From Saccharolobus solfataricus (GTDB lineage: Archaea; Thermoproteota; Thermoprotei_A; Sulfolobales; Sulfolobaceae): 32,000 nt of DNA. Positions 28,545 through 31,191 of the stretch are shown in pieces; the first letter of the stretch is position 1; every line of letters begins with the position of its first letter. The notes under the pieces are model-generated. The model saw only the letters and a list, made by a program, of their open reading frames with translations. It had not been told where the DNA came from and did no database searches. The position numbers and the translations under genes were made by a program. The stretch covers positions 1,830,001-1,862,000 of the forward strand of contig NZ_LT549890.1 of the NCBI RefSeq assembly GCF_900079115.1, given 5' to 3'.

Positions 28545-28556
28545 AAGAACTGACTT

Positions 28557-28717
28557 CCTTATATAAAACATATTAGTCAGATCTGAGTAATACAGATCTG
28601 ACTGGGGTGTAGGCCGTGACGCTCCTTGGGCTTAAAGCCCGATGGGGAGCTTGGCCTCCTCCAATTCGGACCGGAAGTTGGGCAAAAAGCCCGAATAAAA
28701 CATAAGGGTGAGTATAA
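28557..28717 (+). ncRNA. Candidate bridge RNA in the ISC1190 left end (copy C)
   Basis: Hairpins lie at 28575-28603 (11-bp stem), gggcttaaagccc (28628-28640) and gggcaaaaagccc (28680-28692). The guide-like segments are gtgacgctcctt (28616-28627), ggggagctt (28644-28652), ccggaag (28671-28677) and ataaaacataagg (28695-28707). Confidence 0.45.
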
Positions 28718-29663
28718 TTGGAGGCCCCAGTCGCAGGAATAGATGTATCAAAAGATAAATTAATCATGTATTTTCAAGGTAAACTCTACGAGTTTACTAA
28801 TGATAGGCAAGGGTTTGAGGAGATAAGGGAGATCTTACCTAAGGGTTGCAAAGTGGGTATTGAGAGTACTGGAGTTTACCACGTTAACCTAGCAAAGTAC
28901 TTGATGGGTGAGTATGATGTTAGGATTATTAATCCCTTTATTCTCAAGAAGTTCAAGGATTTTAGGGGTAAGAAGAGTGATAAGAATGATGCTAAAAAGC
29001 TAGCAGAAATAGTTGTAAGTATGGGTAGTGGGTTTGTAACAAGTGATGCTAGGGAGTTGACTAGCCAGTGGGATTTTGTTATTAGGAGTATTGCTAGGGT
29101 TAAGAATAGGTTGAGGAGGGATTTGGTACTTTTAGGCTATAGGGATAGTTTGTCTAAGAAAAACTTGGAGGAGGTTTTGAGGGGTGGGGATAGTATTGTC
29201 TTGGCTGAGGTTTCTTTTGGAGGAGCTTGAGAGGCTTGAGGGTAGGAAGAGGGAGATTGAGAAGGAGCTTGAGAATGTTGTTTCCAAGGATAGTTTGATT
29301 TTCACTATTCCTGGTATTGGTAAAACCTTGGGTTGTATTATTTTGGCTAGGGTTGGTGATGTTAGGCGCTTTAGTGATAAGAAGAGGTTTGTTGCTTATT
29401 GTGGTCTTGACCCAGTTGTTGAGTCTAGTGGTAAGAGTGTTGTATCGAGAGGTATTTCTAAAAAAGGTGATGCTGTTTTGAGGAGGGCTTTCTATCTTGC
29501 AGCTTTGACTGCTATTAAGGTTAATCTTGTTATCAAGCGTTTTTATGAGGATCATAAGGGTAGGTTAAAGGGTAAGAAGTTGATTACTGCTTGTGCAAGG
29601 AAATTGGCTGTTATTACTTGGGCTGTGCTGTATTATAATAAGCCCTTTGATGCTAGTGAGTAA
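28718..29663 (+). pseudogene. ISC1190 recombinase gene inactivated by a 5-bp deletion
   Basis: Copies A and B read gaggttaggtttc (AGGTT x2), while copy C reads gaggtttc (AGGTT x1, 29208-29212). This splits the gene into ORFs 28718..29230 and 29184..29663. Confidence 0.9.
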
Positions 29664-29737
29664 AGCAGGTTTCATCACTTGCGTAAGTAGTGTGGACTAT
29701 GCTCGATTTTCAAGGAAAAGTTTTTATACCGGAAGCT

Positions 29738-29860
29738 CCCCACCCTGGAAGGGTCGAGGGTTCCCCTCATCGGTTCGGGTTTACATCCCTCATTTGAGGG
29801 GCAGTCGAGAGGGTCAGAGACCCCCTCCCATTTAAATTCATGATTGCAATAACGTCACGA
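29738..29860 (-). ncRNA. Candidate omega-RNA (reRNA) scaffold at the 3' end / right end of the TnpB element, severed from its distal ~10 nt and guide by ISC1190
   Basis: This block overlaps the tnpB 3' end. It is conserved in the tnpB-less derivative at 12521-12650, which is unexpected for a deleted gene unless the block has a non-coding function. Its GC-rich segments are capable of pairing. Confidence 0.35.
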
Positions 29861-30915
29861 TCATTCTCATAACCACATGAGCACTTAAACCAACGATGAG
29901 AAACCTCAACCATCCTTTTACCGCATTTTGGGCATGAAACAGAAGAATAACTAGGATTAACAAACTCAACAGTCATTCCACGCTTCTTAGCTTGCCAAGA
30001 AATCCAGTACTGCAAACGACGATACTGCATAAGATACAACTTATCCCTAAACTCCTTAGATAGCTTTTCCACGCTCTTAATAAGGTTCTTAAGACTCTCC
30101 AATTTGATGACGTTAACACCCATTCTCTTTGCTACATCAACAACCCACTTCCCCACTTTCCTAGCAAAGTCCTCCATAATCCTCCTAGCCTTTAGATGGA
30201 AAGAACGAACTCTATACAAGATCCTCTTATTCTCCCTCCACCTCCTTGGATACTTCTTCAGCAACCTCTCGGCTAACGACTTCCAGTGGTGAACTTCCTC
30301 AAGGCGAGTTGGGATCCTAACGTAGTTCTTATCGTCCTTCCCTACAACTACCTCAGCCATGTTTATATCTACGGCAATACTTTCCTTTGGCTCAACCTTC
30401 TGCTCCTCTTTCTCAAAAACAACTTTAAGGAAAGCCTTATCATCCCTGATCACTAACCTAGCCTCCTTCATCTTCCAACCCATGTACTCCTTGAGGTTTC
30501 TAGGATAACCTAAGATTGAAAGTTCGCCAACACTCACAATCCTAACAGTCATTGCTTCGAAGTCCACATTATAACTTGCCCTCGGTGTTAACCATACCGT
30601 AGGTCTGTACACTCTAGGAAAACGTCCTCTTCTAGGATTATTATACCAACCCTTGTACGTCGCTAGAGCTTCCCTATAGCAATCCTCAGCAACCTTTGAT
30701 GGTAGATTGTACTCCTCCCTTAACTTCTCGTACAACGCCTCGTGGACTTTCGAAAGCACTCCCTTCTCTTCCGGGTTCGGGACATTTTCTTTCAACCAAA
30801 ATAGGGTGAAACGGAGTGCCTTAACGTAGTTGTTCACGAGGACTAGGAGGGGTTCAGAGAGGGCGATCTTCATTGAAACAGTTGCTCTGATCGCTTTATT
30901 ACCCCTCCTAGCCAT
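29767..30915 (-). CDS. tnpB: TnpB (IS200/605 OrfB, RuvC-like RNA-guided nuclease family)
   Basis: 382 aa. The RuvC contexts are [15 protein letters not shown] and [10 protein letters not shown]. The zinc ribbon is intact: CPKCGKRM...FKCSCG. Confidence 0.9.
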
Positions 30916-30936
30916 TAATGAAATTTTGACAAAGAA

Positions 30937-30950
30937 GTATTTAAATATAG
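30937..30950 (-). promoter_or_regulatory. TATA-box-like promoter element for tnpB in the IS left end
   Basis: ctatatttaaatac on the minus strand is centred ~29 nt upstream of ATG 30915. This spacing is typical for leaderless Sulfolobus transcripts. The same box is conserved in the MITE-like copy at ~13963-13976. Confidence 0.4.
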
Positions 30951-31191
30951 GGGGCTATCCATCCCCTGGCGAGGCTTTCCGCCCCCTTAACCTCCAATTT
31001 TTGTAAAGAAATTAATAGTACAATGATATAACGACGATATTCACACAAAAGTACCTCTGGATTGAAATTATTTACCTAGAAAATATTCAGTAAAACTATG
31101 ATAGAAAAAGAAGTCTAAATAGAAAATTTATAAAATATTTCCCTCTTTAAAGTATTTTGCTAACTGAAGCCTAAAGACGGTATAATAAATC

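Follow-up and report, generated by a model that had tools for sequence, protein, structure and literature searches.

Can one RNA-guided mobile element lodge at the very point where another would join its RNA scaffold to its guide, and if so, is this an accident or a habit? The question arises from a tnpB gene of Saccharolobus solfataricus that lies directly beside a copy of ISC1190, an insertion sequence (IS) of the IS110 family. We analyzed both within a window of 32,000 nucleotides (nt), bases 1830001 to 1862000 of a 3.03-Mb single-contig genome (G000); unless a genomic locus is named, positions are counted from the first base of this window. It is likely, in our view, that ISC1190 was inserted by bridge-RNA-guided recombination at the sequence TGACTTC-CT-CCCC in the right end of the TnpB element, severing the last 8 nt of that end together with the flanking DNA.

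The break inside the TnpB right end

The tnpB gene (29767 to 30915, minus strand) is an open frame of 382 amino acids, and no other member of its subfamily is intact in G000, where the remaining five are fragments. Its product matched PF07282 (Cas12f1-like_TNB; E value, 2.3e-18) and PF01385 (OrfB_IS605; 3.4e-05), the latter at 24.5 bits, under the cut-off of 30.5 bits. Alignment to PDB 8iaz placed the RuvC residues at D183, E273, and D352 and the zinc-ribbon cysteines at C328, C331, C345, and C347. The frame, the Pfam match, and this alignment together bear out the initial annotation, which had described the gene as intact with a RuvC triad and a zinc ribbon.

Many intact relatives were recovered when 47 Sulfolobaceae genomes were searched at the protein level, and several related genomes carry multiple copies. 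From these other genomes we took 21 uninterrupted loci, with proteins 39 to 89% identical to the TnpB studied here, and aligned their right ends. In all 21, a short hairpin leads into GGGGAGGAAGTCAG, after which the sequences immediately diverge into unrelated DNA. The terminus takes the form GAG(G/A)A(A/C)GTCAG across these relatives, with minor variants such as GGTGAGAAAGTCAG, and six relatives within G000 likewise end in ...AAGTCAG with unrelated sequence thereafter. Comparison with intact copies, which the initial annotation had proposed as a way to define the terminus, thus gave 21 ends that continue past GGGGAG; no intact family member stopping at ...GGGGAG was found among the uninterrupted relatives.

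The ISC1190 copy at this locus, copy C (28558 to 29737, plus strand), has a body from 28560 to 29735 flanked by CT cores at 28558 to 28559 and 29736 to 29737. It directly adjoins the remainder of the right end, which ends in ...GGGG-AG, so that the minus strand reads ...ACCCTtccAGGGTGGGG-AG, ISC1190, AG-GAAGTCAG, TTCTTTCACAT.... The severed tail GAAGTCAG, a motif also found in the relatives, occupies 28550 to 28557 on the minus strand and places the true terminus at 28550. When the IS was removed together with its CT core, the joined sequence, ...AGGGTGGGG-AG-GAAGTCAG, was identical to the family consensus. With any register other than CT (AG on the minus strand), either the dinucleotides at the two junctions of copies A, B, and C differ or the consensus is not restored. 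Because the restoration is exact, 8 nt of the right end and the flank must have been cut off by the insertion, which lies 8 nt inside the terminus (10 nt with the core). The earlier statements that ISC1190 stands directly beside the right-end block of tnpB, that it sits about 10 nt inside the terminus, and that its joined flanks match the right end of a relative at 12516 to 12545 therefore all stood up, the last of them now with the support of the 21 uninterrupted right ends elsewhere.

Beyond the terminus, from 28549 downward, there are 5 nt of spacer and then the stop codon and final codons of vapC (28152 to 28544, plus strand; Pfam PIN domain, 1.1e-07), in agreement with the earlier identification of the flank as the 3' end of that gene. 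As read from the sequence, the 3' end of vapC and the spacer would form the guide template of the undisturbed element.

The rest of the host can be read as a solo-TnpB element of the IS1341 type in the IS200/IS605 family, about 1.28 kb long on the minus strand and running from TTAC|31003 to the terminus at 28550. Its ends have the form expected of that family: there are no terminal inverted repeats, both ends carry subterminal hairpins, and a short fixed motif precedes the left end. The left end (30916 to 31003, minus strand), aligned across about 27 loci, contains a TATA promoter-like region and the subterminal hairpin arm GCCTCGCC. This left-end hairpin, GCCTCGCC...GGCGGGG, is similar to the hairpin of the right end, and such resemblance is usual in IS200/IS605 elements. 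Directly 5' of it is TTAC (31004 to 31007, minus strand). Most of the aligned left ends have (T)TAC just before them, with variable DNA further upstream, which makes TTAC the likely insertion-site or transposon-adjacent motif (TAM) of the element. A single intact Y1 transposase gene (PF01797) was found in G000, unlinked to the TnpB element.

Recurrence of the insertion and the leader of ISC1190

The same junction recurs both within this genome and beyond it. The 20-nt sequence CTGACTTCCT|TATATAAAAC is present at eight loci in G000. Among the 28 left ends and 19 right ends of ISC1190-like copies that we compared in this genome, 8 left ends have the identical junction CTGACTTC-CT-TATATAAAAC, and several of the right flanks begin with CT-CCCC(G/A)CCCT. 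Across the family, the 20-nt junction is present in 13 of the 47 genomes and in 7 of 14 genera, with no matches for the reversed control. At the nine loci where the right end of the IS could be located (in G035 and G044), the right flank is in every case the right end of the TnpB family. The exact 13-mer TGACTTC-CT-CCCC would be expected 0.02 times by chance in G000, where we counted one unoccupied site versus eight occupied junctions. Use of the same landing site in other Sulfolobaceae genomes points to targeted insertion. Judged from these junctions, the insertion of ISC1190 into the TnpB right end is a targeted and recurrent event, not an accident. The one-off nested insertion described in the initial annotation is thus not borne out, given the eight loci, the 13 of 47 genomes, and the match of a target loop in a sister genome (see below).

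ISC1190 has the ends of an IS110 element, with no inverted repeats and, in copies A, B, and C alike, a CT dinucleotide core on each side. Copy C is 96 to 97% identical to copies A and B. Both of these hold an intact recombinase frame of 316 amino acids, which in copy A matches PF01548 (DEDD_Tnp_IS110; 4.7e-12) and PF02371 (Transposase_20; 3e-28), whereas the recombinase gene of copy C (28718 to 29663, plus strand) is split by a frameshift into two open reading frames (ORFs), 28718 to 29230 and 29184 to 29663. Upstream of it is a bridge-RNA-like leader (28575 to 28717, plus strand) that comprises a 5' hairpin, a target loop, and a donor loop. The 160-nt ISC1190 leader folds into this 5' hairpin and two stem-enclosed internal loops with a z score of −4.7, and none of 200 shuffled sequences was as stable. 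Of the two strands of the first loop, the one on the 5' side reads in the sense of the left flank followed by CT, and the one on the 3' side, GGGG-AG, complements CT-CCCC. In copy C, the two strands of this target loop are GACGCTC-CT (28617 to 28625) and GGGG-AG (28644 to 28649); those of the donor loop, ACCGGAAG and ATAAGG, match the ends of the IS (all plus strand).

Across ISC1190 copies, the left flank and the 5' side of the target loop change in step in most flank classes, and the matching classes are TGACTTC, (T)GATCTC, CTCTC, GACGCTC, and ACAAACC. For instance, the left flank TGACTTC is paired with target-loop strands TGACTTC or TGACTCC, the flanks TTATCTC and TGATCTC with TGATCTC, TTTCTCTC with TGCTCTC, GACGCTC with GACGCTC, and GACAAACC with ACAAACC, the last carried by sister copies. 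The mean longest match between loop and flank was 4.88, compared with 4.07 ± 0.24 in shuffled pairings, and 6 of 5,000 shuffles reached a value as high; because many copies have a flank class in common, this test is conservative. In the ISC1190 leader, then, the loops for target and donor agree with the flank and with the ends of the IS, and they change along with the target.

The closest comparison comes from a congeneric sister genome (G027), in which the IS occupies the identical position and carries the identical recombinase frameshift. Its tnpB is 99% identical to the one in G000, from which it differs by just three substitutions and one 3-nt indel, and the two genomes share the composite plus 927 nt past the left end. 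The leader of the G027 copy contains TGACTTC-CT and GGGG-AG and so matches the terminus of the TnpB right end perfectly.

The mechanism that we propose is that an ISC1190-type element recombined, under the guidance of its bridge RNA, into the 13-nt sequence TGACTTC-CT-CCCC, whose reverse complement is the terminus GGGG-AG-GAAGTCA(G) that does not vary within the family. Exchange would have taken place within the CT core, with the consequence that GAAGTCAG (8 nt) and the flanking DNA are now 1.18 kb from the remainder. Copy C would then have decayed in place, through the frameshift in its recombinase and through patchy conversion from A-type neighbors that rewrote its target loop.

The same two families also meet in miniature inverted-repeat transposable element (MITE)-like derivatives that lack tnpB. 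One of these, in the window at 12518 to 14031 (minus strand), has an uninterrupted right end, CTGACTTTCTCCCC..., at 12518 that is one mismatch from the ISC1190 target (TGACTTT-CT-CCCC). ISC1190 copy A (about 12737 to 13921) is nested in this derivative at another, internal CT-CCCC site. In G044, we found six units (L041 to L046) that each consist of a tnpB-less derivative with a nested ISC1190, are about 1.55 kb long, and are 96 to 98% identical to one another. All six have the exact boundaries CTGACT... and ...GTAA, and the DNA on either side is unique to each unit and unrelated. At ≥95% identity, G044 contained no empty version of this derivative, and full-length elements in the same genome that carry the variant terminus GGTGAGAAAGTCAG are unoccupied.

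Possible consequences for the candidate omega-RNA and alternative explanations

The remainder of the right end (29738 to 29900, minus strand) overlaps the 3' end of tnpB and is our candidate for the omega-RNA scaffold; it contains two helices, the terminal hairpin ACCCTtccAGGGT, and GGGG before the core. When the 21 right ends were folded to a consensus, two helices showed compensatory changes, from G-C to U-G in helix 1 and, in helix 2, from C-G to A-U or G-C and from U-A to C-G or G-C. Variation in the terminal hairpin, such as CCCTTTAGGG and CCATTTATGG, is also compensated, as judged by eye. The final 11 nt hardly vary, although protein identity drops to 39 to 55%. The single-sequence fold of the right end was not significantly more stable than shuffled sequences (z = −1.4), so it is covariation that carries the structural argument. 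No omega-RNA or bridge-RNA family was found in Rfam, either at the gathering threshold across the whole window or in an E-value search of 28400 to 31100. We also considered a pseudoknot between the terminal AGUC and a GACU in the linker of helices 1 and 2 and rejected it, as the linker variants TACTG, GTCTG, AACTG, and CACAG are not compensated in the invariant tail. The conserved structure of the right end would fit an omega-RNA scaffold that ends at the element boundary.

Sense-overlapping RNAs have been described at IS1341-type tnpB genes in several archaea, S. solfataricus among them (PMC4615843), and RNA sequencing coverage consistent with omega-RNAs has been reported at S. solfataricus IS200/IS605 genes (PMC12558985). 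If an omega-RNA is made from the 3' region of this tnpB, we infer that it would be without the last 8 nt of its scaffold and without its natural guide. Such an RNA would lack GAAGUCAG and the vapC-derived guide, and in their place its 3' part would be antisense ISC1190 sequence, CUUCCGGUAUAAAAACUUUUCC.... This chimeric transcript could, speculatively, be terminated by a T4 run about 17 to 20 nt downstream, as by a T5 run in the natural flank. Self-targeting of other ISC1190 copies would not be expected, because the chimeric 3' sequence at their right ends follows GGGGAG, not TTAC. The initial annotation had concluded that the scaffold is severed from its guide. What stands of this is that the IS lies inside the right end and separates the last 8 nt and the flank from the rest, whereas the uncoupling of the omega-RNA itself is a step that we infer from the known workings of IS200/IS605 TnpB elements; it also fits the compensatory changes in two helices and the invariant terminal 11 nt. 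Normal excision of the element is probably impaired as well, since the presumed Y1 cleavage site (...GTCAG|) has been split from the subterminal hairpin.

It is important to note that several observations weigh against this account. The target loop of copy C itself, GACGCTC, is that of the neighboring copy A and mismatches the left flank TGACTTC, so the argument for targeting rests on the G027 copy and the other loci. G000 and G027 diverge at the first base beyond the right-end terminus (28549/28550 versus L002:1-286), a synteny break exactly at the terminus, past which G027 has an AT-rich spacer where G000 has vapC. The conserved structure and terminus could equally reflect recognition of single-stranded DNA by a Y1 TnpA. 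In S. islandicus REY15A, a sense-overlapping RNA was reported at the IS605-type tnpB genes only and not at the IS1341-type genes (PMC11043419). Finally, a composite of MITE and ISC1190 may yet transpose, which would weaken the claim that mobility is lost. As to the first of these points, informative sites (28560 to 29735 versus L002:293-1480) show copy C to be a patchwork of G027-type and A-type tracts, with the target loop among the converted tracts. Judged from this mosaic, gene conversion most likely replaced the target loop of copy C once the IS was in place, and an IS110 copy can in this way lose the match to its own site.

Two alternatives concern the insertion itself. Dozens of ISC1190-like copies and fragments in G000, along with the mismatched target loop of copy C, would suit a chance nested insertion into an IS-rich genome, with no targeting and no special relation between the two elements. 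We nevertheless consider chance highly improbable, given an identical 20-nt junction at eight G000 loci and in 13 of 47 genomes with no control matches, a perfect target-loop match in the G027 copy, a 13-mer expected 0.02 times, and nine of nine resolvable right flanks elsewhere that are right ends of the same TnpB family. The insertion might instead lie outside the TnpB element, if the right end stopped at ...GGGGAG and CTGACTTC belonged to ISC1190 or to the flank, so that nothing was severed. BLAST similarity among the G000 relatives does fade about 20 nt before the junction, but the 21 uninterrupted relatives run through GGGGAG-GAAGTCAG before diverging, and ISC1190 copies at other sites lack CTGACTTC and have left flanks that track their own target loops; this placement is scarcely conceivable.

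The other two alternatives accept targeting and differ on what it does. Insertion could be targeted yet have no effect on RNA guidance, either because no omega-RNA is made in this host or because the TnpB was already a stranded, nonfunctional relic, being the only intact copy and having no linked cognate TnpA. The IS1341-type tnpB genes of S. islandicus without a sense-overlapping transcript (PMC11043419), the fragmentary state of the other five subfamily members in G000, and the lone, unlinked Y1 transposase gene are in line with this. We still hold it to be unlikely, because the two helices are compensated and the terminal 11 nt essentially invariant at 39 to 55% protein identity, sense-overlapping RNAs are reported for IS1341-type tnpB genes of several archaea including S. 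solfataricus (PMC4615843; PMC12558985), and the TnpB family is intact and multicopy in several related genomes. A somewhat better, if still doubtful, possibility is that the composite of TnpB element or MITE and nested ISC1190 is mobilized as a unit through its IS200/IS605-type ends, the IS being cargo and not a lesion. The six G044 units, with shared exact boundaries, unrelated flanks, and no empty MITE copy at ≥95% identity, speak for such mobility. However, six independent insertions by an efficient site-specific IS into identical MITEs would look the same, and the G044 elements with the variant terminus GGTGAGAAAGTCAG are unoccupied, in keeping with targeting. The cleavage site of IS608-type elements, moreover, is read beside the hairpin.

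Beyond the single locus, our working view, which we hold with some confidence, is that an archaeal IS110 lineage has its bridge RNA programmed to the invariant 13- to 14-nt terminus of one TnpB family and systematically splits scaffold from guide and TnpA hairpin from cleavage site. Across the Sulfolobaceae, one RNA-guided element would then occupy another, possibly neutralizing it or riding on it. If this lineage is specialized on the TnpB terminus, variants such as GGTGAGAAAGTCAG would be escape alleles. The most conserved bases of a TnpB element, those of its right-end terminus, can evidently serve another element as a landing pad. If the TnpB family uses omega-RNA, the insertions would be natural mutants with truncated scaffolds and replaced guides and could reveal the need for the 3' end of the scaffold. 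As a natural case of bridge-RNA target programming in archaea, the locus has guide-target pairs that are legible in genomes. For annotation, it would account for the tnpB genes and MITE derivatives of Sulfolobaceae that often stand beside ISC1190 in one fixed orientation.

Related systems and other elements of the window

Homing of IS110-superfamily elements to conserved ends of mobile elements is familiar from IS4321/IS5075 and from the IS1111-attC group of the IS1111 branch, which take up a fixed position and a single orientation, either within terminal repeats of Tn21-family transposons or within the attC sites of integrons, presumably disabling their target. ISC1190 is similar in homing to the conserved end of another mobile element in one orientation. 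The targets of those elements are bacterial, namely Tn3-family inverted repeats or attC sites, whereas that of ISC1190 is the TnpB right end, where scaffold and guide would meet. Homing of IS110 elements to repeats and to mobile-element ends is thus already known; the terminus of an archaeal TnpB right end as a target appears to be undescribed in the papers searched. The two-internal-loop leader of IS621 and the arrangement of its strands have been described (Durrant et al. 2024, PMC11208160). ISC1190 resembles IS621 in its DEDD and Tnp_20 recombinase, in having a CT core at both junctions and no inverted repeats, and in using a short repeated genomic sequence as its target. Its leader likewise has two loops; their 5' strands read as the top strand does (left target or donor, then core), and their 3' strands complement the core together with the right target or donor. 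It differs in its archaeal hosts (Sulfolobaceae) and in targeting a mobile-element terminus and not a repetitive extragenic palindromic (REP) sequence, and its recombination is predicted from sequence.

The TnpB described here shares with ISDra2, SisTnpB1, and TnpB7 (10.1101/2023.03.06.531077, PMC11043419) the RuvC triad, the zinc ribbon, the subterminal hairpins, a short conserved motif (TTAC in this case) on the 5' side of the left end, and a tnpB 3' region that is structured up to the right-end boundary. It is a solo element of the IS1341 type, with the terminus GAAGTCAG versus TTCAC and the candidate TAM TTAC versus TTTAA in the IS605 type of S. islandicus.

Several other elements were recorded in and around the window. 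The vapB partner of vapC (27938 to 28162) encodes a CcdA-like domain, and no counterpart of the vapBC pair (27938 to 28544) was found in G027. We had considered whether CTCCCCGCCCTAAACGG, which flanks several ISC1190 copies, marks the ends of another abundant IS, and rejected this: these flanks are halves of TnpB-family hairpins that have been split by a DDE-type IS with an inverted repeat beginning CGGTAGACCC. A fuzzy scan for right-end tails that allowed three substitutions plus indels gave mostly noise and was replaced by exact and low-mismatch counts.

An abundant DDE-type IS of about 1.23 kb (225 to 1462, with an ORF at 306 to 1436), containing DUF4322 and DDE_Tnp_1 domains and an inverted repeat that begins with CGGTAGACCCAAAATC, lies repeatedly in the loop of TnpB-family subterminal hairpins and is also present at G000:C1:1571690-1572899 and at locus L013. 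One copy is bounded by 45 nt of a left end and 22 nt of a right end, and in G028 a copy interrupts the right-end hairpin of an intact tnpB. Since both this IS and ISC1190 are found in TnpB ends, two unrelated IS families strike the ends of these elements.

In the region from 22741 to 25770, ISC1190 copy B splits an IS607-type serine-recombinase tnpA, of which the N-terminal part with HTH_17 and Resolvase domains lies at 22741 to 23139, and a second tnpB follows downstream (24538 to 25770). At a paralogous locus (G000:C1:1820822-1822013), an ISC1190 copy occupies the same site, GTCGACRCTC-CT-CCCTCAAC, which is matched exactly by the target loop of that copy, GACGCTC-CT. A second, distantly related IS110-family element at 5185 to 6553 encodes a recombinase of 357 amino acids (5374 to 6447) and is bracketed by 79-nt direct repeats that are 94% identical (5185 to 5263 and 6475 to 6553). 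The sole Rfam match in the window is the small RNA Sso133 (22597 to 22669; 100 bits), just upstream of the IS607-type element.

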